In this document: in pieces, positions 9,394-23,292 of the stretch
Position numbering within the stretch: position 1 is the stretch's first letter
How the letters are laid out: each line of letters opens with the position of its first letter
Notes under the pieces: model-generated
Told to the model about the DNA's origin: nothing
Seen by the model: only the letters and a program-made list of their open reading frames with translations
Database searches by the model: none
Translations under genes and position numbers: made by a program
Assembly (NCBI GenBank): GCA_041914645.1
Contig: JAYSCY010000006.1
Coordinates: 241,647 to 305,646 of the forward strand
Source: Permianibacter sp.
Lineage (GTDB): Bacteria; Pseudomonadota; Gammaproteobacteria; Enterobacterales; Permianibacteraceae
DNA length: 64,000 bases
Direction: 5' to 3'

Positions 9394-10476
9394 TTACGGG
9401 GAGCCGGTTACCGTTGCACTGTCGGATTCGGTCGGCCGAGTAAAACGCTCAGCCCCGTTTTCCTTCCAGGCAATTACCTGTTCGGAGTTGGCCAATACGG
9501 TAACCACATCGGCCATGACCATCGACAGTTCGGTCAGATTGACGACATCAATCAAGCGGACTTCATCTTGTTTGCCATGGTAATGCGATTGGCCGCGCCA
9601 GACCGACAATGAATGTGCCGGTATGCCGAGCCAATGAGGCGCTGCTTCGCTGCCGATGTTCTTGATGGCGGCAAAAGGGGCGTTGTCGGAGCGCAGGAAC
9701 AATTTCCAGTCCGGATAGGGGTCCGCTTCCAGCGACCAGCCCTGGCGTGCCAGCAACGGCTGCAACGTATCGAACAGGTCGGAGTGTTGCCAACCGGTCA
9801 TCCACAGATTTCGGCTGTGTTTGCCTTCGGTGACACCAACCATTTCAAAATTCAGGTTGGTGACAAAGCGACTCAGCGGCAGCAGCGGTTGTTCAACGAA
9901 GTGACGCGAACCGCGTAATCCCCACTCTTCGGCATCCCATGCCGCGAAAACAATATGCCGATTTGGCCGCTGTCCGGTACGGGCAATCTGCTGCTGCAAT
10001 TGTTTGGCAATACCGAGTAGCGTGCTGACGCCGGAGGCATTGTCGTCGGCACCGTTGAACACATGATCCGTGCTGCCGTCCACCGCGCTGCCGATATGGT
10101 CGTAGTGAGCCGACAACAAAATGTACTCGCCCTGGTCGAGCGGCTGCTTGCCCGGCAGGATCGCCAGCACATTGCGGCCGGCCAGCGATTCGCCCTTTTC
10201 GGTCGTGAACGCAAAGGTCTGAAAAAAGTCGACGCGCCCCGGCAGCGGTTGCAAACCCAACTCACGAAATTCGGTGGCCAGCCAGTTGCCCATACGAAGC
10301 TGGGCGGCTGTGCCTGTCTTGCGTCCAGCGGCCGTATCGTCGGCCAGCGTTGCAAGCCAGCGCTGTCGGAGTTGTTGCTCACTGCGCAAAATCGGCGCTT
10401 GGTCGTCGTTGCGGTCGTTGGCTCGCAACGGTGCGGCCATGACAAGCCCGGTCAGGGCGATCAAAAACAGTTTCAT
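9394..10476 (-). CDS. M28-family metallo-aminopeptidase (secreted)
   Basis: Signal peptide MKLFLIALTGLVMAAPLRAN. M28 motifs are present: LLSAHYDHIGS, NGADDNASGVSTLLG, FAAWDAEEWGLRGSRHF. AAGGAG lies 9 nt upstream of the ATG at 10476. Confidence 0.85.
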   Translation of the reverse strand: MKLFLIALTGLVMAAPLRANDRNDDQAPILRSEQQLRQRWLATLADDTAAGRKTGTAAQLRMGNWLATEFRELGLQPLPGRVDFFQTFAFTTEKGESLAGRNVLAILPGKQPLDQGEYILLSAHYDHIGSAVDGSTDHVFNGADDNASGVSTLLGIAKQLQQQIARTGQRPNRHIVFAAWDAEEWGLRGSRHFVEQPLLPLSRFVTNLNFEMVGVTEGKHSRNLWMTGWQHSDLFDTLQPLLARQGWSLEADPYPDWKLFLRSDNAPFAAIKNIGSEAAPHWLGIPAHSLSVWRGQSHYHGKQDEVRLIDVVNLTELSMVMADVVTVLANSEQVIAWKENGAERFTRPTESDSATVTGSP

Positions 10477-10618
10477 GCCGGGTCGGCTCCTTGAATTGGC
10501 GAGCAGTGCGGGTCGCTGCATTGCAGTCGGTCATTGTGGCGACGGCGGGGCCCGCCGGCGCTTTGGCGTCGGCCTGCTATGCTTTGGCGGGTATCGCGGC
10601 TCCGGATTGTACTCGCCC

Positions 10619-12673
10619 ATGACAACGCGTTGGTTATTTGCGCTTATTGGTTTGTTGCTGAATGCGTCGGTCTCGGCCTGGTCGGCCGAAGAGCTGGACG
10701 CCGATTGGCTGGCCAAAATTTCCGCCATCCGTGAGCTGACCGATGATGCAGCGGCTCAGCAGGCTACAACCGAGCTTGCGGCAACCATCCCGTCTGAGCG
10801 TTCTCCGACCCTGGAATATCACTGGTTGTCCCTGCAATTATCGATGGCAGCCAAGCGTGACAACGGCGAACACGTTACCCAGCTCACTGATGCATTGCTG
10901 GCATTCGCTGACAAGAGTGGCGTACCGGAGGCCCGTATCGAGGGAATGATTTACCGGGCCGGGCAACTGAAAGATGCAGGCAAACCGGAGGACGGGTTGA
11001 AGCTGGTCCGCGAGGCACTGGCGCTACTGGAAGGCGTTTCGGATCTCCGCTTGCAGTACCTGACCCACAATCGGGCAGCGTTGATCTATTCCGATACCGG
11101 CGACTATGAAAGCGCCCTGGTTGAACACCTGAAAGCGCTGCCGTTGGCTGAACAATCCGGCACATTGAGGCCGCCGCGTGAACTGCAAACGTTGAATAAT
11201 CTGGGCGCGCTCTACCTGAATCTGCGGCAACCGGAAAAAGCGCTGGAGTATCTGCAACGTGCACTGCCGCTGGCCGAGAAGTTCGGTGCCAAGCGGAATC
11301 TGGCCAACCTCAATGCCAATCTTGGTTATGCATGGTCGTCGCTTGAGCAACATGAACAGGCCAAACAGGCGTATCTCCGGTCACTGCAACTGGCCCGCGA
11401 GATAGGCGAGGTGCGCACGGAAACGACCGCGCTGGTTAACCTCTCGGATGATGCCTTGCGTCAAAAAGCATTTCAGGAGGCGGCTGATTATGCCCAGCAA
11501 GCGCTAGTTCTTTCACAAGGCGCCAAGCTGGTCAGCAGCGAGGCCATTGCGCGTGCCAATCTGGGCAGTGCACTCGTTGGCTTGGGCCAGTACAAACAGG
11601 GTTTGCAACAATTGCTGGCGGCCCAGCAGTCATTCCAGGCGATTGGCGATGTCGGCACGGAAGATGTCATGTTGACGGACTTCATTCTCGCTGCCGAGCG
11701 TGCCGGTGAGTTGGCGCAGGCCAACGGCCTGCTGCACCGGCAGCTTGAATTGCGCGAGCAGCTTTTTTCCGAGTCGCGGCAACGCGCTGTGACCGAACTG
11801 CAGGAACGCTTCGACGCCAGCGCGAGGCAAAAGCAGATCGAGTTGCTGGAGCGGGAAAATCAATTGCAGTCGGCCGAAATCAGCAATCGCCGCCTGTACC
11901 TTTGGGTCGTGGGATTGGTGGCATTGACGGTGGTGCTGGCGGCCGCGGTGGTCATGCTGTCCTACTGGCGGGTTCGCGATGCCAATCGCCGCCTGCAGGC
12001 CGCCAATGAGAAATTGGCCGATCAGTCGATACGGGACCCGCTGACCGGCCTGTTCAACCGGCGCTCGTTCCAGTTGGCGATGGATCGGCGCTGGACCGAG
12101 CGTGAGCGACGCAACAGTGCCGACACCTCAATCGACGCCTTCATCCTGCTCGACATCGATCATTTCAAGCGCATCAATGACAACCATGGTCATGCAGCAG
12201 GCGACACCGTGCTGGTTGAAGTGGCCAAGCGCTTGAACAGCAGCATGCGCGACAGTGACATGGTGTTGCGCTGGGGTGGTGAAGAATTCCTGCTGTATTT
12301 GCGGGGCACGACGATAGACGCCTTGTCCGGTGTTGTTGAAAGGGTACTGAACGGCCTCGGTGCTACGCCAATCCAACATGAAGGCAAGCCGTTGCCGGTA
12401 ACGGCCTCAGCGGGCTTCATTCCGCTGCCATTCAGCAATCTGCCGGAGACAGAGTTCGGTTGGGAGCGCGCGGTGCAACTTGCCGACTCAGCGTTGTACC
12501 TTGCCAAAAGTCGCGGACGTAACCGGGCCTATGGTGTGCTGGCGATCAACGGCGACAGCCACGAGCTCGCTTCGGCATTGGAGCAAAACCTCGCGCATGC
12601 CATGCGCCACCATCAGGTGAATGCCGTCGAGGTGCTGGGCCCCGGTGCCGCGCCTGCCGGTGCGGATGATTGA
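10619..12673 (+). CDS. TPR-repeat sensor diguanylate cyclase (GGDEF)
   Basis: Signal/anchor MTTRWLFALIGLLLNASVSAWS, a long TPR-like region, one transmembrane (TM) segment, then RDPLTGLFNRRSF...DIDHFKRINDNHGHAAGD...RWGGEEFLLYL. The track ORF from 10274 is trimmed to the ATG at 10619. Confidence 0.85.
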   Translation: MTTRWLFALIGLLLNASVSAWSAEELDADWLAKISAIRELTDDAAAQQATTELAATIPSERSPTLEYHWLSLQLSMAAKRDNGEHVTQLTDALLAFADKSGVPEARIEGMIYRAGQLKDAGKPEDGLKLVREALALLEGVSDLRLQYLTHNRAALIYSDTGDYESALVEHLKALPLAEQSGTLRPPRELQTLNNLGALYLNLRQPEKALEYLQRALPLAEKFGAKRNLANLNANLGYAWSSLEQHEQAKQAYLRSLQLAREIGEVRTETTALVNLSDDALRQKAFQEAADYAQQALVLSQGAKLVSSEAIARANLGSALVGLGQYKQGLQQLLAAQQSFQAIGDVGTEDVMLTDFILAAERAGELAQANGLLHRQLELREQLFSESRQRAVTELQERFDASARQKQIELLERENQLQSAEISNRRLYLWVVGLVALTVVLAAAVVMLSYWRVRDANRRLQAANEKLADQSIRDPLTGLFNRRSFQLAMDRRWTERERRNSADTSIDAFILLDIDHFKRINDNHGHAAGDTVLVEVAKRLNSSMRDSDMVLRWGGEEFLLYLRGTTIDALSGVVERVLNGLGATPIQHEGKPLPVTASAGFIPLPFSNLPETEFGWERAVQLADSALYLAKSRGRNRAYGVLAINGDSHELASALEQNLAHAMRHHQVNAVEVLGPGAAPAGADD

Positions 12674-12719: not shown

Positions 12720-13163
12720 TCATTTTTTCGGTATAACTTGAAAGCTGTCGCTGCGAGGTAGCTCCTGCAGTACCGCCACCAACGCCGGAGGCGGGGTGAT
12801 CAGTTTGCGGGCATGGAGATCCAGCCAGGCGCCGTGCGAAATCACCCGTGCTGCCAACTCGCCGCTTTCCTTGAAAAACTCGTTGCGCAGCTTGAACCGG
12901 CCGGCATCTTCACTCAGTGCCTCCATTTGCAAGCTGACCGTGACCGATTCCAACAGCCGAAACTCCTTGTAGTAATCCACCTCGTCACGGAATACCACCG
13001 GCCCGATTTTCAGCTTGCCAAACTCCGCAGCCGGAAACCCGTGCTCCTGAAAAAAGGTAAAGCGCAAGTCCGCGGCGAAATTCAGATAGGCCGTGTTGGC
13101 CATATGGGCATTGAAGTCCATATCAGCCCAGCGTGCGACAAACGAGCGTGAAAACGCAGCCAC
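12720..13163 (-). CDS. Hotdog-fold acyl-CoA thioesterase family protein
   Basis: 147 aa reading MAAFSRSFVARWADMDFNAHMANTAYLNF..., typical of 4HBT/YbgC-like thioesterases. Confidence 0.65.
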   Translation of the reverse strand: MAAFSRSFVARWADMDFNAHMANTAYLNFAADLRFTFFQEHGFPAAEFGKLKIGPVVFRDEVDYYKEFRLLESVTVSLQMEALSEDAGRFKLRNEFFKESGELAARVISHGAWLDLHARKLITPPPALVAVLQELPRSDSFQVIPKK

Positions 13164-13182: not shown

Positions 13183-15021
13183 TCAACGAATTCCGCTGAC
13201 CGCGGTTGCTGCCATGGTTTCGGTCACCGTGGCCGTGCCTGTTGCCGCTTCGGTCTCGACGGCATCGCGACGTGATTGGCAGTCACGGTAGCTGACACAA
13301 CAGTTACGGCCCTGCTCCTTGGCCGTGTAGAGCGCGAAGTCAGTCGCTTCGAACAACTGATCGGCTGTTTTGCCGAGCTCATCGTCCAGGCTGCCGAGCC
13401 CGATGCTGATGGTGACCGCATGACTGCCGGTATTGTCCTGTTGCACTGTGTTGCGCAGCCGTTCGGCCAGCACCATCGCCTCATCATGGCTGGCGCCAGG
13501 CAGAATCACGGCAAACTCCTCGCCACCGTATCGGCACGCCAGATAGGGTTTGCGAACGTGTTTGCGCAGTGCGTTGGCTACCCGCTTGATCGCTTCGTCA
13601 CCTTCGGCATGCCCATGCAGGTCATTGAACTGCTTGAAATGATCGATATCGATGACCAGCAATGCCAGCGGCTTACCCTGCTGGGTCGCCATGGCAATGG
13701 CGGCGGGCAGTCGGTCATCAAACAGCCGGCGATTGCCAAGCTGGGTTAGCGCATCGGTGCGACTCTGATGCTGCAATTCGTTCATTCGGCTGCTCAGCGT
13801 CAACGAAAGCAAAATCATTTCCAGCAGGGAGCCAATCTGCCAGCTGTTCTGGGTCACGAACGTGTGTGGCAGTACGCCGAAAATCTTCCACAGGTAGACA
13901 ATGGAACCGGCCAGAAACGCACCCCAGGCGATAAGGAAGTAGCGGGCCGGAATCGAGCCGGCGAGCGCGCTGACACTGCCCATGATCAGCATGAAGATCA
14001 CCGACAGCAGAATCAGCAGCGTTACCGGCACGATAAGGGTGGCATAGGGCAGTAGCGGCGCAGCAACCAGCGCCGCGAAGGCGATCCACTGCAGGCCTTG
14101 GGCGACTTTGTCCAGACGTGGTGCGTAGTCACGAGCGTGCAGAATCATCCGGGAGAATTGCAGCGCCACCAGCAACGAGGCGCTGAGCAGCACAATCAAG
14201 CCCGTGTTGCCCCAGCGTGGGCTGTTGGGCCACAGAAACTGAAATGCCAACCCATTGTGGGTCGCCATATACAGGCCAAAGCAGGCGACATAGGCGAAAT
14301 AGGCCAGAAAGGCGCGGTCCCGAACCGCGACATAGACCAGAGAGCTCCAGACCAGCAGCATGATAACGGCACCGTAATAGATGCCGTATGCCAGCTGTTC
14401 GCGGCTCAATTTGGCAACCAGATGGTCGATGCTATTCACCGACAGACTGATATCGATTGGTCCCTGCGATTGGTAGCGAAGGTAATAACTGCGTTCACTG
14501 TGGGCGGGTACCAGCAACGGAAACAGAAATTCGCGATGCAGGATCTCGCGATTGGCAAACGGCAAGCGGTCACCTGTTGCCAGCTGCTGCCAGCTGCCGT
14601 CGGCTGCCGGTTGATAGAAGTCGATGTAGTCGATCAAGGGATAACTTTGCCGCAGGACCACCTTCAGACTGTCCGCTGAGTCGTTGCGCACCCGAAACCG
14701 AGCCCACCAGGTCGATTTGGTGAAGCCGATGTTGGTGGCTTCATGACTGGCCGGGTTGAACCGCTGGCCAGCAGTCACGACCTCGTCAATGGTCATCAAT
14801 CCGCTGGGGTCTTCCAGCAACTCCAGATGGCCGGCGAGCCGATCAAGCTGCATCGGGTCAGTGATTACGATAGCCGAGGTGCTGGAGCTGAATGGGGATT
14901 CACCATCGCTGGCAGCGATTCCTGCAACGCTGAGCACGGACAACAACAGGCCGGTGAAATAACGGAAGAAGTGGCGGCTGACGTAACGCAGCTGACAAGT
15001 CGGATTCAGCATCGATAGCAT
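13183..15021 (-). CDS. 7TMR-DISM-type membrane sensor diguanylate cyclase (GGDEF)
   Basis: An N-terminal periplasmic domain (STWWARFRVRNDS...), about 7 TM helices, then TDALTQLGNRRLF...IDIDHFKQFNDLHGHAEGD...RYGGEEFAVIL. An alternative start is at 15012. Confidence 0.85.
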   Translation of the reverse strand: MLSMLNPTCQLRYVSRHFFRYFTGLLLSVLSVAGIAASDGESPFSSSTSAIVITDPMQLDRLAGHLELLEDPSGLMTIDEVVTAGQRFNPASHEATNIGFTKSTWWARFRVRNDSADSLKVVLRQSYPLIDYIDFYQPAADGSWQQLATGDRLPFANREILHREFLFPLLVPAHSERSYYLRYQSQGPIDISLSVNSIDHLVAKLSREQLAYGIYYGAVIMLLVWSSLVYVAVRDRAFLAYFAYVACFGLYMATHNGLAFQFLWPNSPRWGNTGLIVLLSASLLVALQFSRMILHARDYAPRLDKVAQGLQWIAFAALVAAPLLPYATLIVPVTLLILLSVIFMLIMGSVSALAGSIPARYFLIAWGAFLAGSIVYLWKIFGVLPHTFVTQNSWQIGSLLEMILLSLTLSSRMNELQHQSRTDALTQLGNRRLFDDRLPAAIAMATQQGKPLALLVIDIDHFKQFNDLHGHAEGDEAIKRVANALRKHVRKPYLACRYGGEEFAVILPGASHDEAMVLAERLRNTVQQDNTGSHAVTISIGLGSLDDELGKTADQLFEATDFALYTAKEQGRNCCVSYRDCQSRRDAVETEAATGTATVTETMAATAVSGIR

Positions 15022-15151
15022 TCCTGCAAGCGACTCGGCATTGGAGTCTCATTATAGGTTGGGTCTCTTGCGTGGTTGTCGTTCGGCAGGTGCCATCGTC
15101 TACCAAGCTGGTGACGGAACGCAGACCACTGCCGGCTGCCGCTGCAAACTC

Positions 15152-15196
15152 GGTCGTTGCAAACCCAGTCGTGACAAACCCGGTCGTGACAAAAAA
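15152..15196. repeat. Three tandem 15-nt direct repeats in a divergent promoter region
   Basis: The copies GGTCGTTGCAAACCC / AGTCGTGACAAACCC / GGTCGTGACAAAAAA are contiguous. They lie between the GGDEF gene (minus strand) and the di-haem gene (plus strand). Confidence 0.8.
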
Positions 15197-15378
15197 CAGA
15201 ACGCCGGGTAGTGTGCGCGCAGACCTCGCGCCCTGCAATCCACTTGCTTGCCGTGGCAGGGCAGGTGGACAGCAGGTGATGCCGTGCAGCGCTGCACAAA
15301 TGGCCATTGCCGACGACATAACAAGAAATGCCGGACGCTGGCAGTCTGTCTGGCCTGAAGGGGACAAGGAGAATGTGG

Positions 15379-17715
15379 ATGACGGGAACAGTGCTCGGAC
15401 GTGTGCAGCAATGGTGGGGACGGCTGATGGCCGTTCGACTGGGACAATTGCTCAGAGGGTTGTTGAAACTGGCTTTGGTGGTGGCTCTGATCGCAATCGC
15501 CGGGTTCGCCTGGTTTGTCTTGTGGCCGACCCATACCATTCCCGCGCTAGAGTCCGTTGATGAGTATGTCTATCTCGACCAGAACTGGGGTGATGGTCAG
15601 CAAGCCAGCGGTCGTGAACAGTATTACTACACCGGTCAGGGCGCATCCATGCCGCAAGGCGCGTCGGCCGGCGCGGTTCGATATGACTGGTTTGTGCATC
15701 TGGAGTTGCCGTTCTCGGAACAGCGCTTCGCCGACCCGGACCACATGCGCAAGTATCGCTTCATTGTCGATCCCAAGCCGAGCGCGGCCAATCCGGATCA
15801 GTTGCCAGTCGGCTTTACCCGGCATTTTGATCCGGCAATTGGTGAAGATGTGCTCGACATCACCTGTGCGGCCTGCCATACCGGCGAGATCCATTACCAG
15901 AAAGACAGCACCCGTTACGCCATCCGCATCGATGGCGGTCAGGCCATGCATGCGTTTACTGACATGACCCGCGGCAGCTTTGCGCCGGTATTGCTGGCGT
16001 CACTCATCGACACCGTGGTCAAGCCCTGGAAGTTTGACCGGTTCGCGAAGAAGGTGTTGGGCACGGGTTATCCGGCCGGTAAAGATCAGCTGAAAACAGC
16101 GGTCTTGGCCTCGATCAAGGCCATGCTTGGCAGCGGCCAGAACAATCCGCTGCGCAAACTCTATCCGGTGCACGAAGGCTTCGGTCGCACGGATGCGCTC
16201 GGCCGGATTGGCAATACCGCGTTTGGTGATCACCTGGTTGCCGCCAACTATCAAGTCGGCGATGCCCCGGTCAGCTACCCGTATCTGTGGAATATCTGGA
16301 AGTTCGACTGGGTCCAGTACAACGGCTCGGTGGCGCAACCGTTGGCCCGCAATATTGGCGAGGTGCTCGGCGTCGGTGCCATTGCACCGCTACGCAGTGA
16401 CATGAATGAACCGCTGCCGGCAGCAGAGCGGTTTCGCAGCTCGGTCAATATCGGCAATCTGCAAACCATCGAACACACGCTGCAAAAGCTGACGCCGCCG
16501 CGTTGGCCGGAAGCCATTCTGGGTGCCATCGACCCAGTAAAGGCACAGCAGGGTGAAGCACTGTTCAAACAGCATTGTCAGGGTTGCCACGGTCCGCATG
16601 TTGCCAGCGCGGCCCGCCAGCAAGCCAGCGCGCCACTGAAGCCGTCGCCGGACGTTGAGTGGCGCATCGAAGTGATCCCGCTGGAACATATCGGCACAGA
16701 TCCCACCGCCGCCAATGCGTTCCTCGAACGGCATTACGATCTGAGCCCAGCCGGTTTGAGCAATGACGAACTGCGGGCGGCGCTGCAGCCGCTGCTGATT
16801 CGGCAATTGGCCCGTGACGCCCGATTCCGGTTGACCGAGGTCATCGCTCTGCGCGGTGCAGCGCAGTTGCCACTTGGTGAGCTGCCGGCGCTGCTGGCCC
16901 AGTATCCGAATCCGGATGCCGATGCCACCGCAGTGTTGCCGAGCGAACACTTCCAGCGCATCGATGCCGCCCTGTCCACGCTGCTGCAACCGTTACCGGC
17001 CATTCCTTCGGCCAGCGACTGGCCGGCGGATCCGCTGCATTGCGATCTGGATTGTCATACCGTCAATCTGCTCTGGGATCTGCGCCAGGGCATGGCCAGC
17101 ATTGAGCAACGGATGGCGGCGATTGACGTCACCAAAATGGAAGAGGGCGCCGCGCTCAATGTGGTCGGCATTCTGATCAAAAATCGTTTCTATGCTGACT
17201 ACGGTATCGACTACCCGACCCAGCAGTGTCTGGAAGGGTTTGGTGCGCTTGACTTGCCCCAGGTGATCGCCGGTTACAAACCCCGGCCGCTGGAAGGCGT
17301 CTGGGCAACGCCGCCGTTCCTGCACAATGGCTCGGTACCGAGTCTGTATCAAATGCTGCTGCCGCCGGCCAAGCGCGACAGCAAGTTCTTTGTTGGTCGA
17401 CGCGATTTTGATCCGGTTCATGTTGGCTATGTCACAGCACCGGATGAAGACGGCGACGACGACGGCTTCTGGCTGGACACCAGCATCACTGGCAATCACA
17501 ACAGCGGCCATGCTTTCGCTGCCGATGCCACACTCTGGCAGCAACATCAGCAGGATCCGAAAGCGCATCCGCTACCGACTGGTGTAATCGGTCCGGAGTT
17601 CAGTGATGAAGAGCGTTTTGCGATCATCGAATACCTGAAAGTTCACCGTGACCTGCCGGCAACGCCCGCCGACTTTCAGCCGCCGCAATGCCAGCTCTGG
17701 GGGCAGACATGGTGA
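15379..17715 (+). CDS. Membrane-anchored periplasmic di-haem cytochrome c, CCP/MauG/RoxA-like superfamily
   Basis: Two CXXCH motifs (DITCAACHTGE and KQHCQGCHGP) and a CCP/MauG-like motif WATPPFLHNGSVPSLYQML. The N-terminal hydrophobic anchor is LLKLALVVALIAIAGFAWFVLW. AAGGAG lies 7 nt before the ATG at 15379; in-frame alternative starts are at 15328 and 15373. Confidence 0.75.
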   Translation: MTGTVLGRVQQWWGRLMAVRLGQLLRGLLKLALVVALIAIAGFAWFVLWPTHTIPALESVDEYVYLDQNWGDGQQASGREQYYYTGQGASMPQGASAGAVRYDWFVHLELPFSEQRFADPDHMRKYRFIVDPKPSAANPDQLPVGFTRHFDPAIGEDVLDITCAACHTGEIHYQKDSTRYAIRIDGGQAMHAFTDMTRGSFAPVLLASLIDTVVKPWKFDRFAKKVLGTGYPAGKDQLKTAVLASIKAMLGSGQNNPLRKLYPVHEGFGRTDALGRIGNTAFGDHLVAANYQVGDAPVSYPYLWNIWKFDWVQYNGSVAQPLARNIGEVLGVGAIAPLRSDMNEPLPAAERFRSSVNIGNLQTIEHTLQKLTPPRWPEAILGAIDPVKAQQGEALFKQHCQGCHGPHVASAARQQASAPLKPSPDVEWRIEVIPLEHIGTDPTAANAFLERHYDLSPAGLSNDELRAALQPLLIRQLARDARFRLTEVIALRGAAQLPLGELPALLAQYPNPDADATAVLPSEHFQRIDAALSTLLQPLPAIPSASDWPADPLHCDLDCHTVNLLWDLRQGMASIEQRMAAIDVTKMEEGAALNVVGILIKNRFYADYGIDYPTQQCLEGFGALDLPQVIAGYKPRPLEGVWATPPFLHNGSVPSLYQMLLPPAKRDSKFFVGRRDFDPVHVGYVTAPDEDGDDDGFWLDTSITGNHNSGHAFAADATLWQQHQQDPKAHPLPTGVIGPEFSDEERFAIIEYLKVHRDLPATPADFQPPQCQLWGQTW

Positions 17716-19835
17716 GTGCGTCGGAAGCCGGCAAGCGATCCCAATCAACGGAGCAAGGCGGTGGCAATGCGGATCCGCATTACAGTCCCCATTTCGAGAC
17801 GGTTCAGGCTGCCGAACAACAATGGCAGGCAACCCGGCGCGCTGCCGCCGGTGTTGCGGCCGATGCTCCGCTGGTTGGTCTCGGGCTGTCCGGCGGCGGC
17901 ATCCGCTCGGCGTCGTTCAACATGGGCGTGTTGCAAGCGCTGAGTCGTAGCGGTTTGTTAGGTCGCATCGATGTGCTGTCTACTGTGTCCGGCGGCGGCT
18001 ATATCGGTTCCAGCCTGAGCTGGTTGCGTGCCCAAGTGCCACTCAGTGCCAGTCCGGAGCTTGGTAGTCTGCCATTGGCCAACGGTCATGGCAGCGTGCT
18101 CGACTGGTTGCGCGCACACGGTTGCTATCTCATCAGCGGCCGTGGCTTTTCCAGCTGGTCACTGGCGTCATCGATTCTGGCCGGTACGCTGTTGAATCTG
18201 TTTGTGCTGCTGCCACTGTTCATGCTGCTGATCGGCTTGGCCAGTCAGGACTGGTTTGCCTGGAGCTGGCCGGCGACACTGCATCTGCCCGGTGCCGGCG
18301 CGGTGCCGGCGCACGACGGTTTCATGCTGCTGACCTTGCTCGGGTTTATCTGCTTCGGTTTGTTCCTGTTGAACACGCTGATTTTCGCGCTGAGTACGGC
18401 TTTGCCACCGCTGCGCCGGCTGACAGCCGAGTTCTTCTTTCGCCGTCTGCTCGGCCGCCTGCTGGCGGCCGGTTGCATCGCACTGGCACTTGGCGTGCTG
18501 CCGATCCTCACCGGTATTGAAGAAACGGCCGTCATGGTGCTGCGCGACGAAGGTTCGCGCGGAATGGCCCGTCACCTCAGCTACTTGTTGCCGATGCTGA
18601 CCGGCGTTCTGTCTCTGTGGCGGGCGCGGAAAGCCGGTGCGCAGACGGGCAGTGGGGGATCCGGATTAGCGGTCTTTGGTCTGGCGCTATTGCTCTACAG
18701 CTTTTTTACCGGGCTCTACCATCTAGTCTCCCATACCGATTTGTTGTCCAGCACCGGTTTTCAGATATGGCTGGCCGCCTCGGTGCTGTTGGCACTGGTC
18801 GCGGATGTCAATGCCGTCTCTATGCACAGCTATTACCGCGGGCAACTGGCGGAAGCGTATTTGCCTGAGATCAAAACGGCCGGTCCGTCCGTGTCCGCCA
18901 ACCCCATGCAGTTCCGGCTGGTCGATCTGAAGCCCGAATCGGGCGCACCACTGCAGCTGATCAACACCACCCTCAACACCACCAGCTCGAAACAGGAAAA
19001 ACTGCGTAGTCGCAATGGTGAAAACTTTGTGCTGTCACCACTGTATTGTGGCTCGACATCGACCGGGTATCGGCGCACCGAAAACTACCGCAACGGCAAA
19101 CTGAGCCTGTCGACGGCGTTTTCGGTTTCCGGTGCTGCCGTCGACCCCGATATGTACGCCACCAAATCCCGGCCCATCAGTTTCCTGATGAGTCTTCTTA
19201 ACATCCGTCTTGGCTTCTGGACCGCCAACCCTCGCGTTCGGCCATCGAAATTCTGGCTGCCGACCTGGTATCGGTTGATGCTGCGGGAAATGCTCGGTGT
19301 CGGGTTGTCGGAGCAGGAAGCACAAATCCATCTGGCGGATGGTGGTCACTTCGAAAACCTGGGCCTGTATGAACTGCTGCGTCGTCGCTGCCGCTACATC
19401 ATCGTCAGCGATGCCGGCGCCGATCCCGAGACTACGTTGGCCGATCTCGGTCAGGCAGTACAGCGGGCACGCGCCGATTTTGGTGCCGTGGTTGAGATCT
19501 GTGCCGATCAGTTCTTTCATGACCGAAACGAGGCACTGCATGACCACGTTCACGTGCTTGGCAAAGTGACTTATGCTGATGGCAGCATCGGTGAGGTGCT
19601 GTATCTAAAAGCCATGCTTTGCAAGCAGCTCAGCGCTGACATTTACGGCTACTGGCGCACCCATGCGGCGTTTCCGAACCAGAGCACGGCTAATCAGTTC
19701 TATGACGAACTGCAATTCGACAGCTATCGCGAGTTGGGTTTGCAACTGATGTTGGGCATCATCGGTCGGCAACCAGCGCCGAGTATCGAGCAGCTGTTCC
19801 AGCAGCAGCAACCGACGGCGACGACGGCTGCTTGA
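17709..19835 (+). CDS. Patatin-like phospholipase with an internal polytopic membrane insertion
   Basis: Catalytic motifs: GLGLSGGGIRSASFNMGVLQAL (oxyanion Gly-rich loop), STVSGGGYIGS (nucleophile elbow) and HLADGGHFENLGLYELL (Asp of the dyad). About six hydrophobic helices lie between the Ser and Asp motifs. The ATG at 17709 overlaps the upstream stop (ATGGTGA). Confidence 0.8.
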   Translation: MVSASEAGKRSQSTEQGGGNADPHYSPHFETVQAAEQQWQATRRAAAGVAADAPLVGLGLSGGGIRSASFNMGVLQALSRSGLLGRIDVLSTVSGGGYIGSSLSWLRAQVPLSASPELGSLPLANGHGSVLDWLRAHGCYLISGRGFSSWSLASSILAGTLLNLFVLLPLFMLLIGLASQDWFAWSWPATLHLPGAGAVPAHDGFMLLTLLGFICFGLFLLNTLIFALSTALPPLRRLTAEFFFRRLLGRLLAAGCIALALGVLPILTGIEETAVMVLRDEGSRGMARHLSYLLPMLTGVLSLWRARKAGAQTGSGGSGLAVFGLALLLYSFFTGLYHLVSHTDLLSSTGFQIWLAASVLLALVADVNAVSMHSYYRGQLAEAYLPEIKTAGPSVSANPMQFRLVDLKPESGAPLQLINTTLNTTSSKQEKLRSRNGENFVLSPLYCGSTSTGYRRTENYRNGKLSLSTAFSVSGAAVDPDMYATKSRPISFLMSLLNIRLGFWTANPRVRPSKFWLPTWYRLMLREMLGVGLSEQEAQIHLADGGHFENLGLYELLRRRCRYIIVSDAGADPETTLADLGQAVQRARADFGAVVEICADQFFHDRNEALHDHVHVLGKVTYADGSIGEVLYLKAMLCKQLSADIYGYWRTHAAFPNQSTANQFYDELQFDSYRELGLQLMLGIIGRQPAPSIEQLFQQQQPTATTAA

Positions 19836-19852
19836 TGGGCTAGCAAATGCCA

Positions 19853-19885
19853 AAAAGGAACCGGCGGTTGCCGGTTTCTTTTTGG
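19853..19885. terminator. Bidirectional intrinsic terminator
   Basis: The sequence AAAAAGGAACCGGCGGTTGCCGGTTTCTTTTT lies between convergent genes. Confidence 0.75.
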
Positions 19886-19892
19886 CTGCTTG

Positions 19893-20358: not shown

Positions 20359-20649
20359 TCAGAAAGCTGCTGTCGAAACATAAAGAAATGCAGCGAGAAC
20401 CCCGAACCACCCGAAAACCAAGACGTACTCACGAGGTGCTTGCTGCATAAAGTACCGTCGCGGGGTATCCCAAACGGCCAAATGCGGGAAGAGTAGGGGA
20501 AATAGCGGCCCTACACCTAAAAGCGTGACCTCAAACCAAGAAAGATCAGTTGCAGCGAGACCAATGGCGAGAGTTCCAGCGCAAATCAATACTGCAAGCC
20601 TATTTGACAAGGACCACTCAATTTCAGATAGGAAATCGAAGTTAGACAT
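20359..20649 (-). CDS. Small membrane protein (3 predicted TM helices), hypothetical
   Basis: The protein begins MSNFDFLSEIEWSLSNRLAVLICAGTLAIGLAATDLSWFEVTLLGVGPLFPLLFPHLAV... Its ATG overlaps the kmo stop (ATGTCTAA). The local sequence is AT-rich. Confidence 0.5.
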   Translation of the reverse strand: MSNFDFLSEIEWSLSNRLAVLICAGTLAIGLAATDLSWFEVTLLGVGPLFPLLFPHLAVWDTPRRYFMQQAPREYVLVFGWFGVLAAFLYVSTAAF

Positions 20650-22000
20650 TGAATGCCGCGAGCCTTTGTAGAATGAGATTCTCCGCCAAGGCGTAATCCA
20701 CCTGCTCCGGTTGATCAATATGGTCGCAGAGCTCGGCCAGAATCCCGTCGTTGATCCGGCCTCGGCGCAGTGCCTCGGCATAGGGTAGATGCTGGAACAT
20801 CACCATGGAATAGCGCGGGCTGAATTTTTCCGGCCAGCGCTTTTCCAGTTCAAAGCCAACGGTTTTCTTCAGCTGGAATTTCGGGTCGCGGACGGTGGCG
20901 CGCATCTCGACGTAGTTTTCCTGGGCCATCAAGGCGATCGCTTCGGCATTGGGTTTGCGCGCGGCTTCATAGGCTGCGAAAACGGCATCCCAATTGTCAT
21001 TGTGCTGCGTCAGCAGCTGGTTCAGGTCAAAGCAGTCTTCAAAGCCGCAGTTCATGCCCTGGCCATGGAACGGCACAATCGCGTGGGCGGCATCGCCAAT
21101 CAACAGTGCCTTGCCGGGTACGGTCCAGTTCGGGCAGTGCACGGTGCCGAGAAAGCCGGTCGGGTTATTGAAATAGGTGTCGGCGGCGTCCGGCATCAGT
21201 TTCAGCGCATCGGCAAAGTTCTGTTCGAAAAAAGCGGTGAAGCTGGTCTTGTCGTGCAGCGCGGCAAAACTGATCTTGCCCTGGTCGGGGGCAAACAGCG
21301 TCATGGTGAAGCTGCCGTCGTTGTTCGGCAGGCCAATCATCATGAAGTCGCCACGCGGCCAGATATGCAGGGCGTTCTTCTCAATCTGGAAACTGCCGCC
21401 CGGACCGGCGGCAATGGTTAGCTCCTTGTAGGAGTGAAACAGCTTTTCCTCGACACTGGCGACGCCATGCAATGTGTCCATGGCCTTGCGCACCAGCGAG
21501 CCGCCGCCATCAGCGCCGATCAGCAATTCGAATGATTCGTCTTGCACGCTGCCGGTGCGGTCATTCTTCAGCCGTATCCGCTGCGTATCGAAATCAATCT
21601 GTTCGATGCCGGTGTCGAACACGATTTCTACTTTACCGGTCGCTTCGGCAGCGGTCATCAGCAGCTTGTTCAGCTCGCCGCGCGAGACCGAATAAATGAC
21701 CTCGTGCGGGCGCTGGCCGTACGGCACCAGCAGGGTGTGGCCGTTTTCGTCGTGCAGCATCCGGCCGGTCATTGGAATAATGATGTCGCGCACTTGCTGC
21801 ATCAGGCCAAGTTCTTCCAGTGGCCGAATACCGCGATTGGCCAGCGCCAGATTGATCGAGCGGCCGGCGCTGATGCGGGTCGTGCGCATGTCGGGCCGCT
21901 TTTCATAGAGGGTGATGGTGTAGCCGCGCCGGGCCAGATAAATCGCCAGCAGCGAGCCAACCAGGCCGGCGCCAATCAGGGTGATATGTTGTGGTTTCAT
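20642..22000 (-). CDS. kmo: Kynurenine 3-monooxygenase (FAD-dependent)
   Basis: The N-terminus is MKPQHITLIGAGLVGSLLAIYLARRGYTITLYEKRPDMR (Rossmann GxGxxG). ...LIGDAAHAIVPFHGQGMNCGFED is also present. An alternative GTG start at 22024 would overlap the kynU stop. Confidence 0.9.
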   Translation of the reverse strand: MKPQHITLIGAGLVGSLLAIYLARRGYTITLYEKRPDMRTTRISAGRSINLALANRGIRPLEELGLMQQVRDIIIPMTGRMLHDENGHTLLVPYGQRPHEVIYSVSRGELNKLLMTAAEATGKVEIVFDTGIEQIDFDTQRIRLKNDRTGSVQDESFELLIGADGGGSLVRKAMDTLHGVASVEEKLFHSYKELTIAAGPGGSFQIEKNALHIWPRGDFMMIGLPNNDGSFTMTLFAPDQGKISFAALHDKTSFTAFFEQNFADALKLMPDAADTYFNNPTGFLGTVHCPNWTVPGKALLIGDAAHAIVPFHGQGMNCGFEDCFDLNQLLTQHNDNWDAVFAAYEAARKPNAEAIALMAQENYVEMRATVRDPKFQLKKTVGFELEKRWPEKFSPRYSMVMFQHLPYAEALRRGRINDGILAELCDHIDQPEQVDYALAENLILQRLAAFNV

Positions 22001-22020
22001 GAGCTGGGCCTTGGCTGAAT

Positions 22021-23292
22021 TCACGCTTGCACCGTCTTCTTCAGTATTTGCACAAAGCGCCAGACGTCTTCAAAGCTGTTGTACAGCGGCGCCGGCGCTG
22101 CCCGCATCACGTTGGGTTCGCGGAAATCGCAGGTCACGCCTTGCTCTTCCAGTTTGTGCTGGACCTGCTTGGCGGTCTGGCCGTGCAGTTTTACGGTCAA
22201 CGACAATTGCGCGCCGTGGCGGCGTGGTTCAAAAGGGGTCAGCACATGAATGGCATCGCCGAGTTCCTGTTCCAGCAGCCAGCGCAGATACCCGGTCAGT
22301 TCCAGTGATTTTTTCCGCAGCGGATGCATGCCACCCGCTTCCATGAAGGTGTCGAGCGAGGCCCGTACCGCCGCCAGCGACAGGATCGGCGGATTCGATA
22401 ATTGCCAAGCCTCGGCGGTCGGGATGGCATCGAACTCGGGGCCCATCTGGAAGCGAATGGCCTTGTTCTGGCCCCACCAGCCATGGAAGCGCGGCAAATC
22501 CTTGCCGAGGTGTTTTTCGTGCACAAACGCGCCGGCTACCGAGCCGGGGCCGCTGTTCAAATATTTGTAGGAACACCAGGCTGCGAAATCGACATTCCAG
22601 TCATGCAGGTTCAGCACGATATTGCCAACCGCATGCGCCAAATCAAAACCAACTGTGGCGCCGACACTGTGACCCGCTTCGGCAATCGCTGCCATGTCCA
22701 GCACTTCGCCGGTGTAGTACTGCACACCGGGCAGCAGTACCAATGCCAGCTGCCTGCCTTCACGTCTGATGAGTTCCACCAGATCTTCCTGGCGCAGGCA
22801 GTCTTCACCGGCGCGCGGCTTGGCCAGCACCAACGCTTCCTTCGGGTCGAGACCGTGGAAGCGCAGCTGCGATTCGACCGCATAGTGATCGGACGGAAAC
22901 GCATGATCTTCGATCAGGATCTTGAACCGCTCCTTGCTCGGCCGGAAGAAGCTGACCATCAGGAAATGCAGGTTGGCGGTCAGCGAGTTCATGCAGACCA
23001 CTTCTTGCGGCAGCGCGCCGACCAGCTTGGCCGAGGCATCCGTCAGGAATTCATGATAGGGCAGCCAGGAATGTTTGGCAGCGAAATGGCCTTTGACGCC
23101 GAGCTGCTGCCAGTCCTTCAACAATTCATCAACATAATCGGCGGTGCGCTTGGGTTGCAGGCCCAATGAGTTGCCACACAGGTAAATCTCATCGATGCCG
23201 TGATGACGCGGAATATGGAACTGATTGCGCATCGGGTGCAGCGGATCGGCGCCATCGAGTTTCTGGGCAAAAGCGAGATTGTTCTCAAGCAT
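22021..23292 (-). CDS. kynU: Kynureninase
   Basis: 423 aa reading ...PMRNQFHIPRHHGIDEIYLCGNSLGLQPKRT...WCSYKYLNSGPG (PLP Lys region). Confidence 0.93.
   Translation of the reverse strand: MLENNLAFAQKLDGADPLHPMRNQFHIPRHHGIDEIYLCGNSLGLQPKRTADYVDELLKDWQQLGVKGHFAAKHSWLPYHEFLTDASAKLVGALPQEVVCMNSLTANLHFLMVSFFRPSKERFKILIEDHAFPSDHYAVESQLRFHGLDPKEALVLAKPRAGEDCLRQEDLVELIRREGRQLALVLLPGVQYYTGEVLDMAAIAEAGHSVGATVGFDLAHAVGNIVLNLHDWNVDFAAWCSYKYLNSGPGSVAGAFVHEKHLGKDLPRFHGWWGQNKAIRFQMGPEFDAIPTAEAWQLSNPPILSLAAVRASLDTFMEAGGMHPLRKKSLELTGYLRWLLEQELGDAIHVLTPFEPRRHGAQLSLTVKLHGQTAKQVQHKLEEQGVTCDFREPNVMRAAPAPLYNSFEDVWRFVQILKKTVQA

Follow-up and report, generated by a model that had tools for sequence, protein, structure and literature searches.

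A conserved gene pair for a candidate RoxA-like di-haem enzyme and a membrane-embedded patatin-like lipase, and its link to a diguanylate cyclase

The haem-lipase gene pair and its conservation

A stretch of 64,000 nucleotides (nt) from Permianibacter sp. (contig JAYSCY010000006.1), here called the window and used as the frame for all positions in this genome, carries two adjacent genes that together span 15379-19835. The first encodes a di-haem c-type protein and the second a lipase of the patatin kind with several membrane helices. An earlier reading of the DNA letters (the sequence-only reading) had proposed that these genes form an undescribed two-gene module. The features of the locus are the following (aa, amino acids):

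15379..17715, plus strand: gene for the long-form di-haem c protein, 778 aa; alternative starts at 15328, 15373 and 15379
17709 or 17712..19835, plus strand: gene for a polytopic patatin/cPLA2-like acyl hydrolase, about 707 aa
17709..17715, plus strand: stop/start overlap ATGGTGA, with ATG 17709 or GTG 17712 against TGA 17713-17715
13183..15021, minus strand: divergent gene for a 7TMR-DISMED2/7TMR-DISM_7TM/GGDEF diguanylate cyclase, 612 aa, GGEEF intact
15145..15193, no strand: tandem repeat of 15 bp in 3.3 copies (CAAACCCGGTCGTGA), Tandem Repeats Finder score 70
15186..15214, plus strand: promoter-like element GTGACA-17 nt-TAGTGT, 5' of the haem gene, from direct reading of the sequence
19849..19886, no strand: intrinsic terminator that separates the lipase gene from a convergent gene of the OmdA family, from a 17-bp perfect hairpin and a terminator scan

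An alignment of the haem protein was scanned against species-representative genomes and matched 187 of them. The best 80 loci were kept and, with two further loci and the window, make up the set of 83 loci used here; the hosts of the best 80 are Steroidobacteraceae, Lysobacterales, Hahella, Marinobacterium, Kangiellaceae and Pseudomonas zhanjiangensis. The lipase gene lies directly 3' of the haem gene in 64 loci, an informative ratio of 64/77 once the six lipase-less loci that end within 1.6 kb of the haem gene are left out. The ATGGTGA overlap to which the sequence-only reading had drawn attention is real, and the lipase start and the haem stop overlap by 4 nt (ATGA, GTGA or TTGA) in 46 of these 64 loci, and by 1 nt in three more. 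A metagenome scan with the lipase gave the same picture: all 26 close orthologues (at least 59% identity, and over 150 nt available upstream) have a haem gene that ends where the lipase begins. The pair is genuine and intact, its two genes are strongly conserved together, and their translational coupling is conserved with them. In the window the haem gene start at 15379 is backed by an identical database protein (P0001; 778 aa, 100%), with AAGGAG 8 nt before it, and the lipase may start at ATG 17709 or at GTG 17712, of which the latter would give a 4-nt NTGA overlap of the type found in the 46 loci.

Conservation extends to the residues expected to act. SGGGIRSA, VSGGGY and HLxDGGxFxNLG do not vary among 59 lipase orthologues (39-70% identity), and both CxxCH motifs are present in 80/80 long haem proteins and in 34/34 short forms, a paralogue described below. 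Judged from these alignments, the catalytic and haem motifs are under purifying selection.

The sequence-only reading took the pair for a self-contained bicistron, bracketed by an iteron-bearing promoter region and a strong terminator. The intergenic region between the haem gene and the divergent cyclase gene measures 357 bp and holds the promoter-like element and the repeat, the last unit of which overlaps the -35-like hexamer. In the closest relative (locus L003) the GTGACA and TAGTGT hexamers and their 17-nt spacing are kept, unlike the repeat array, which is there a single unit. An Rfam scan of the 5' region in the window found no riboswitch (for example, for cyclic di-GMP, c-di-GMP). What the sequence-only reading called iterons is this tandem repeat, and the array is not shared with L003. 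The terminator is as strong as had been supposed (free energy of the hairpin -29.9 kcal/mol, z = -6.6), and because an A-run and a T-run flank the hairpin it is expected to act in both directions, on the side of the lipase gene and on that of the convergent neighbour, which belongs to the OmdA family by its Pfam match. What did not hold is the self-contained nature of the pair: the cluster also includes the divergent 7TMR-DISM cyclase and, in many cases, a further di-haem paralogue.

The di-haem protein and the lipase

All the landmarks that had been claimed for the first protein of about 780 aa could be located. Its N-terminus has five Arg/Lys residues followed by a single strongly hydrophobic helix (aa 33-51, nt 15469-15525), which would form a transmembrane (TM) anchor. 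Haem 1 is placed at CAACH (aa 165-169, nt 15865-15879; His169) and haem 2 at CQGCH (aa 402-406, nt 16576-16590; His406), and c-type haem attachment places the protein in the periplasm. The MauG-type motif PPFLHNGSVPSLYQML, which contains PPFLHNGSVP, occupies aa 647-662 (nt 17311-17358; His651), and GNHNSGH follows at nt 17491-17511 (His713). GNxNxGH is invariant among the orthologues, and His713 is the likely distal ligand of haem 2. The sixth ligand of this haem would then likely be His rather than Met, unlike in the canonical cytochrome c peroxidases (CCPs), which use His/Met ligation. Compared with the short paralogue, the long form has as extras the TM anchor with a conserved WFxxWP, a helical insert of about 160 aa with conserved Cys residues, and a C-terminal extension.

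The protein had been assigned to a CCP/MauG/RoxA-like group. The RoxA-like part of that assignment stands, as does the MauG-type motif, and the CCP_MauG part does not. The NCBIfam model NF040606, named 'di-heme-cytochrome C peroxidase', matched with 491.8 bits (cut-off 150; E = 3e-147) over model positions 4-523 of 524. Pfam RoxA-like_Cyt-c matched at the PPFLHNGSVP motif (E = 3e-15) and Pfam cytochrome c models matched at haem 2, while Pfam CCP_MauG (PF03150) had no match at E <= 0.1. The equivalogs of the rubber oxygenases RoxA, RoxB and RoxC scored 35.3, 46.9 and 43.4 bits against cut-offs of 900-1000, over the MauG-type motif of about 37 aa only. RoxA (4b2n) is the sole significant solved relative by sequence (E below 0.01): a Protein Data Bank (PDB) search with the single sequence returned it at E = 7e-5, with nothing else below 0.3, and a search with an 18-sequence profile at E = 1e-7, with nothing else below 0.05. 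The alignment with RoxA is collinear at haem 1, the MauG-type motif and the C-terminal helix. By these matches the haem protein is a member of the RoxA-like branch and not of the CCP_MauG type.

Comparison with characterised enzymes sharpens this placement. RoxA of Xanthomonas sp. 35Y shares with the window protein the collinear alignment and the RoxA-like_Cyt-c domain; its haem spacing is 199 aa (PMC4496055) against 237 aa here, and it is a secreted enzyme acting on polyisoprene, a rubber-degradation context being absent at the window locus. Canonical CCP/MauG proteins have in common with the window protein two c-type haems, an xHxGSVxxL-type motif and the NCBI peroxidase name. They are set apart from it by the lack of a PF03150 match, by its size, which is about twice theirs, and by the separate branch that the RoxA group forms (PMC4496055). 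Two further members of that group, on a branch apart from CCP/MauG, are PA2077, an oleate 10S-dioxygenase, and PA2078, a 7,10-diol synthase (PMC4496055); the Pseudomonas aeruginosa diol synthase is periplasmic and its oxylipin products promote biofilm formation (PMC5155153). These FadCcp proteins are, like the window protein, large, monomer-sized, periplasmic RoxA-like di-haem c proteins, and they differ from the haem enzymes of the cluster in being soluble, the latter being TM-anchored or lipoproteins. The sites of PA2077 are CAGCH130, CAACH375, PYFH553NGSVP and the distal H611 (PMC4496055). From haem 1 to haem 2, to the MauG-type His and to the distal His, the spacings are 245/178/58 aa in PA2077, 237/245/62 in the window protein and 222/119/58 in the short paralogue; the window protein therefore has the FadCcp pattern of CxxCH sites about 235-245 aa apart, PxxHNGSVP, and a distal His some 58-62 aa further on. 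On this comparison the architecture of the window protein would fit the oxygenase branch, PA2077 and PA2078 being compared here through their published motif positions alone. The characterised members of the branch, RoxA and PA2077/PA2078, are all O2-dependent oxygenases of hydrophobic olefins (PMC4496055).

The second protein had been described as a patatin-like membrane lipase with intact motifs, and so it proved. The oxyanion motif GGGIR (aa 62-66, nt 17892-17906), the nucleophile Ser94 in TVSGG (aa 92-96, nt 17982-17996) and the catalytic Asp544 in DGG (aa 544-546, nt 19338-19346) are all in place, and hydropathy puts six TM helices at about aa 149-368 (nt 18153-18812), in the stretch that separates Ser94 from Asp544. 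Pfam Patatin (PF01734) scored 23.7 bits against a cut-off of 27.7 and covered residues 60-108 only, under threshold because the TM insert breaks the domain; a precomputed PF01734 match exists for most of the lipase orthologues. NCBIfam and PDB sequence searches with the lipase returned nothing. An AlphaFold2 (AF2) model from a 25-sequence alignment, of low confidence with a predicted local distance difference test (pLDDT) of 61, has six long helices in the insert region, and in Foldseek its best matches were human cPLA2-alpha (1cjy, probability 1.00) and cPLA2-delta (5iz5), followed by PlpD, VipD, patatin and, weakly, CapE and ExoU. The patatin assignment, short of the cut-off in the profile search, is thus upheld by the Ser-Asp motifs and the match to the cPLA2 fold. 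With the patatin/cPLA2 superfamily (cPLA2-alpha, PlpD, ExoU, VipD, CapV/CapE) the lipase shares GGGxR, the GxSxG-type Ser, the Asp of DGG and the fold.

What distinguishes such TM-split patatins is a TM bundle of 5-8 helices between Ser and Asp, at the place where cPLA2 has its cap. The family is large, with 16552 clusters at 50% identity for E <= 1e-3 and 6253 for E <= 1e-30. In a sample made of every third of 150 listed members, 50 out of 50 have GGGxR, then a TM stretch (3-9 predicted helices, mostly 5-7), then DGG, and most have a GxSxG-type Ser about 32 aa after GGGxR. A limited literature search found no study of this architecture. TM-split patatins span many phyla, and the annotation of most is no more than 'hypothetical' or 'patatin-like'. 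In one marine genome a gene for OMPLA (PLA1) lies 2 kb downstream of the patatin gene.

From hydropathy and the positive-inside rule, the lipase is predicted to have both termini inside: the putative cytoplasmic loops contain 5 and 3 Arg/Lys residues, and the remaining loops 0, 3 and 0. Since the two catalytic halves must share one side of the membrane and a signal peptide is absent, the active site would face the cytoplasm.

Defence and toxin systems often use patatin effectors, and the lipase could on that account be a membrane-disrupting effector, as in the cyclic-oligonucleotide-based anti-phage signalling system (CBASS) or ExoU, with the haem protein as its trigger. The weak Foldseek matches to CapE and ExoU would agree with a conflict system of this sort. 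The PADLOC models, however, returned zero families for either protein at E <= 0.1, the chromosomal context is stable across families with no conserved mobile-element or defence-island genes, and the system is tied to c-di-GMP signalling and not to nucleotide-sensing modules. We give this explanation hardly any credence.

The cyclase, the second di-haem protein and related clusters

The divergent cyclase gene of the window encodes DISMED2 (Pfam E = 8e-39), 7TMR-DISM_7TM (2e-45) and GGDEF (3e-43) domains, each well over its Pfam cut-off. Its orthologues (41-74% identity) were found in 66 of the 83 loci, placed upstream in divergent orientation or downstream on the same strand, and GG(D/E)EF is intact in all 63 that were examined; in the other 17 loci the cyclase was undetected within the fetched sequence, often since a contig end cuts the locus. 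The gene orders below, with arrows for the direction of transcription, show that the cyclase is a third conserved member of the cluster, retained through several rearrangements:

19 loci: long >, lipase >, < short, cyclase >
18 loci, the window type: < cyclase, long >, lipase >
15 loci: < cyclase, long >
6 loci: short >, long >, lipase >, cyclase >
5 loci: < cyclase, short >, long >, lipase >
3 loci: long >, lipase >, cyclase >

The short di-haem paralogue occurs in 37 of the 83 loci, where it forms a tandem with the long form or is transcribed divergently from the cyclase (for example, L032 6720-8288 and, on the minus strand, L067 12451-14097). It has about 550 aa, shares about 31% identity with the long form, matches NF040606 with 544 bits and usually carries a signal of the lipoprotein (lipobox) type, such as LLAGCG or LLAACG. 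All-against-all clustering of the open reading frames of the loci gave, beyond the haem, lipase, cyclase and short families, none present in more than 19 loci. The tandem di-haem paralogues of many related clusters recall the PA2078/PA2077 pair. The cyclase resembles 7TMR-DISM proteins such as P. aeruginosa NicD, RetS and LadS in its DISMED2 and 7TM sensor, and here the output is GGDEF. No 7TMR-DISM protein with a di-haem or patatin partner was reported in the literature searched.

A 4HBT_2/acyl-ACP-thioesterase-like gene (147 aa, 12720-13163, minus strand) lies 19 nt 3' of the cyclase gene and is probably co-transcribed with it. Its orthologue (83% identical) has the same place in L003 only, the other loci being without it, and this lipid-related gene may be a lineage-specific accessory. 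Convergent with it is a gene for a second diguanylate cyclase (10274-12673, plus strand), with TPR repeats, a TM segment and GGDEF, so that two GGDEF proteins are encoded within 5 kb.

Related di-haem and patatin genes also stand together in three more distant settings. On the symbiosis plasmid pNGR234a of Sinorhizobium fredii NGR234 (L088, 405306-420994), four genes in a row encode a 432-aa 'catalase', a 232-aa hypothetical protein, a 596-aa di-haem protein that matches NF040606 with 491 bits, and a 693-aa patatin. The type of this patatin is another one: it is non-TM, and its nucleophile motif is GASAG. The di-haem gene is present on four further Sinorhizobium plasmids; the full neighbourhood was inspected in NGR234. 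On Methylobacterium plasmids a gene for a TM-split patatin of 934 aa is divergent from a di-haem gene, and in strain NMS14P a regulator and a cytochrome P450 come next in the annotated neighbourhood. Finally, a metagenomic clade (L159, L161/L171, L162 and L172) has, in full in L161/L171 and L172, the order TM-patatin, SGL/SMP-30 lactonase-like protein, long di-haem protein and a catalase-family protein of 390 aa, with a convergent MASE7-GGDEF gene:

L161, 6025-13904: metagenomic cluster
L172, 4839-12473: metagenomic cluster

The 390-aa mini-catalase has a hydrophobic N-terminal segment and is 37% identical to the NGR234 catalase; its best solved relatives are the catalase-related protein MAP_2744c (3e4w, E = 5e-7) and the coral allene oxide synthase (AOS) domain (1u5u, E = 3e-3). 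Small catalase-related proteins are found in two of the three recurrences. Catalase-related AOS and hydroperoxide lyase (HPL) enzymes act on fatty-acid hydroperoxides (PMC5617202). Upstream in NGR234, beside an IS21 element, a 'hypothetical protein' of 273 aa matches cytochrome c and RoxA-like_Cyt-c and has the appearance of the C-terminal portion of another di-haem paralogue, one that may be disrupted.

Pairings of di-haem and patatin genes thus recur independently in Sinorhizobium, in the Methylobacterium plasmids and in the metagenomic clade. The set returns with non-orthologous members, with another patatin type or another cyclase sensor domain. No other finding argues as strongly that the functional link is real, and this one favours a lipid-oxygenation pathway. 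This idea gains contextual support because the relatives add a mini-catalase, in two contexts, and in Methylobacterium a P450.

The linked catalase-family genes suit another scheme as well, the repair of oxidised lipids. In that scheme the di-haem protein would be a true peroxidase of H2O2 or lipid hydroperoxides, the lipase would excise damaged chains from the inner leaflet, and the cyclase would report envelope or oxidative stress. The curated family name, di-heme cytochrome c peroxidase, speaks for it, and so does the tethering of both the haem protein and the lipase to the membrane; the loss of the lipase in some lineages would suit an accessory role. The linked catalases, however, are of the small catalase-related type (390-432 aa) and not standard catalases. 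The haem protein itself does not match CCP_MauG, the likely distal ligand of its haem 2 is the His of GNxNxGH, as in RoxA and FadCcp, and no Met was seen conserved across the long and short forms. Nor is a gene for an electron donor (cytochrome or azurin) conserved in the cluster. We regard repair as improbable on this balance.

Another possibility is that the di-haem protein senses O2, redox state, NO or H2O2 in the periplasm and controls, through its TM anchor, both the cyclase and the lipase, the latter remodelling the membrane as an output. The conserved WFxxWP residues of the anchor would suit such a sensor complex, as would the haem-cyclase link, which is retained where the lipase is missing, and the translational coupling, which suggests a stoichiometric complex. 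In the distant metagenomic clade the cyclase is swapped for MASE7-GGDEF; it is therefore the type of output that is conserved, and not the sensor domain. Against this, the full catalytic-type, RoxA-like architecture is conserved in both paralogues, the tandem haem paralogues resemble the two-step PA2078/PA2077 system, and the mini-catalase, P450 and SGL lactonase-like genes linked in the relatives look like a pathway. We consider a pure sensor unlikely.

A proposed lipid-derived signal linked to cyclic di-GMP

Our preferred proposal, to which we give somewhat less than even chances, is that the lipase and the haem oxygenase make a lipid-derived signal that is linked to c-di-GMP. The window pair would be the core of an inner-membrane module found mainly in Gammaproteobacteria. 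A RoxA/FadCcp-like di-haem enzyme would be tethered at the periplasmic face by its N-terminal TM helix, and the six-TM lipase, with its active site facing the inner leaflet from the cytoplasm, would cleave an unsaturated acyl chain off a membrane glycerolipid. Once free, the fatty acid would reach the periplasmic leaflet, where the di-haem enzyme would oxygenate it with O2, as PA2077/PA2078 do with oleate. Either its product or the state of activity of the complex would be linked, through the 7TM receptor-cyclase, to c-di-GMP, and in many genomes the second, lipoprotein-anchored di-haem paralogue would act as a further component. The sequences establish the gene structure, the integrity of the motifs, the family membership, the co-conservation, the translational coupling and the recurrence with non-orthologous partners, while the topology, the substrate, oxygenase rather than peroxidase chemistry and the direction of signalling are what we infer in this scheme.

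All the components belong to known superfamilies. The closest precedent in function is the diol-synthase system of P. aeruginosa. There the oleate used is exogenous (PMC5155153), whereas the haem gene of the cluster is coupled to a lipase gene of its own. The two systems also differ in their regulators. That of the P. aeruginosa oxylipins is the cytoplasmic transcription factor OdsR, and the one linked to the cluster is a 7TM diguanylate cyclase. By analogy with eukaryotes, in which cPLA2, a COX or LOX dioxygenase with haem or iron and a 7TM receptor form a cascade with the same logical parts list, second-messenger output included, the cluster could be a self-contained bacterial lipid-mediator cascade: the cPLA2-like lipase would free an endogenous fatty acid, and one or two dioxygenases would make an oxylipin of it. 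In the relatives, a catalase-related enzyme that transforms hydroperoxides would also take part, which has a parallel in the coral fusions of catalase-related AOS with LOX, and variants would exist in Alphaproteobacteria, including on rhizobial symbiosis plasmids. Except for the patatin/cPLA2 and catalase-related folds, the parts of the cluster are non-homologous or distant to those of the eukaryotic cascade, and we hold this wider form of the proposal to be possible but doubtful.

Several observations weigh against a lipid-derived signal. The active site of the lipase and the haem domain are predicted to lie on opposite sides of the membrane; with the former cytoplasmic and the latter periplasmic, the product must cross the bilayer. 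In 13 loci (L004-L006, L009-L012, L014, L015, L022, L027, L031 and L061) the haem gene is kept and the lipase is absent within 8 kb downstream, and at least 12 of these keep the cyclase; the hosts are cultured Steroidobacter and Peristeroidobacter and related metagenome-assembled genomes (MAGs), of which one is labelled Enterobacterales and another Lysobacterales. The short di-haem paralogue and the mini-catalase are both missing from the window, and DISMED2 domains are usually considered carbohydrate-binding. The peroxidase name of NF040606 is the NCBI annotation, and the literature search found no enzymology for any member of this family. The structural comparison suggested by the sequence-only reading succeeded for the lipase and not for the haem protein: the AF2 model of the latter, from an 18-sequence alignment, is poor (pLDDT 62) and returned noise only in Foldseek (best E = 1.3, to GPCR complexes), so that with models of pLDDT 62 and 61 structural inference on the haem pocket is precluded. 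Lastly, a patatin partner is not general for NF040606, since the members in Ruegeria, Geminocystis, Rhizobium WL3 and on the Ralstonia megaplasmid have unrelated neighbourhoods.

A general haem partner for the TM-split patatins was likewise considered and rejected. No haem gene adjoins the remote members (about 32-36% identical to the window lipase, with relatives in Nitrospirae, Gemmatimonadetes and a marine gammaproteobacterial MAG), and the haem gene is absent from 12 metagenomic lipase loci of 37-41% identity. The coupling is therefore specific to certain clades and a property of neither family as a whole.

If true, the proposal would add an endogenous bacterial route from membrane lipid to c-di-GMP to a field, bacterial oxylipin signalling, known so far mainly from P. 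aeruginosa, with host-supplied oleate and a cytoplasmic regulator. It would also give a first function to the NF040606 di-haem proteins and to the TM-split patatins, with their more than 6000 clusters at 50% identity, and would suggest a ligand class for 7TMR-DISM receptors. The sequence-only reading knew of no described system of this kind, and none was found: neither the full-text literature search nor a 2024 review of octadecanoids describes this gene cluster. The cluster is widespread, internally consistent and experimentally tractable, and the hypothesis is directly testable because some hosts are in culture (Hahella ganghwensis, Marinobacterium rhizophilum, Dokdonella immobilis, Arenimonas oryziterrae and Sinorhizobium fredii NGR234) and Steroidobacter offers natural 'no-lipase' controls.

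Some minor observations concern the surroundings of these genes. In L004, one of the lipase-less loci, a convergent gene that is transaldolase-like by eye stands in the place of the lipase after the haem gene. On the megaplasmid of Ralstonia solanacearum OE1-1 (L094), a 'cytochrome c' of about 630 aa, a weak match to the haem protein (about 28% identity) with homologues in 127 Ralstonia records, is encoded between the genes for a very large GMC 'choline dehydrogenase' and a metallophosphoesterase; a metallophosphoesterase is also encoded near the Methylobacterium di-haem gene. In the window, two genes at 20642-23292 on the minus strand, which are not conserved beside the cluster, look by eye like those for a kynurenine 3-monooxygenase-type, FAD-dependent enzyme and a kynureninase-type aminotransferase.

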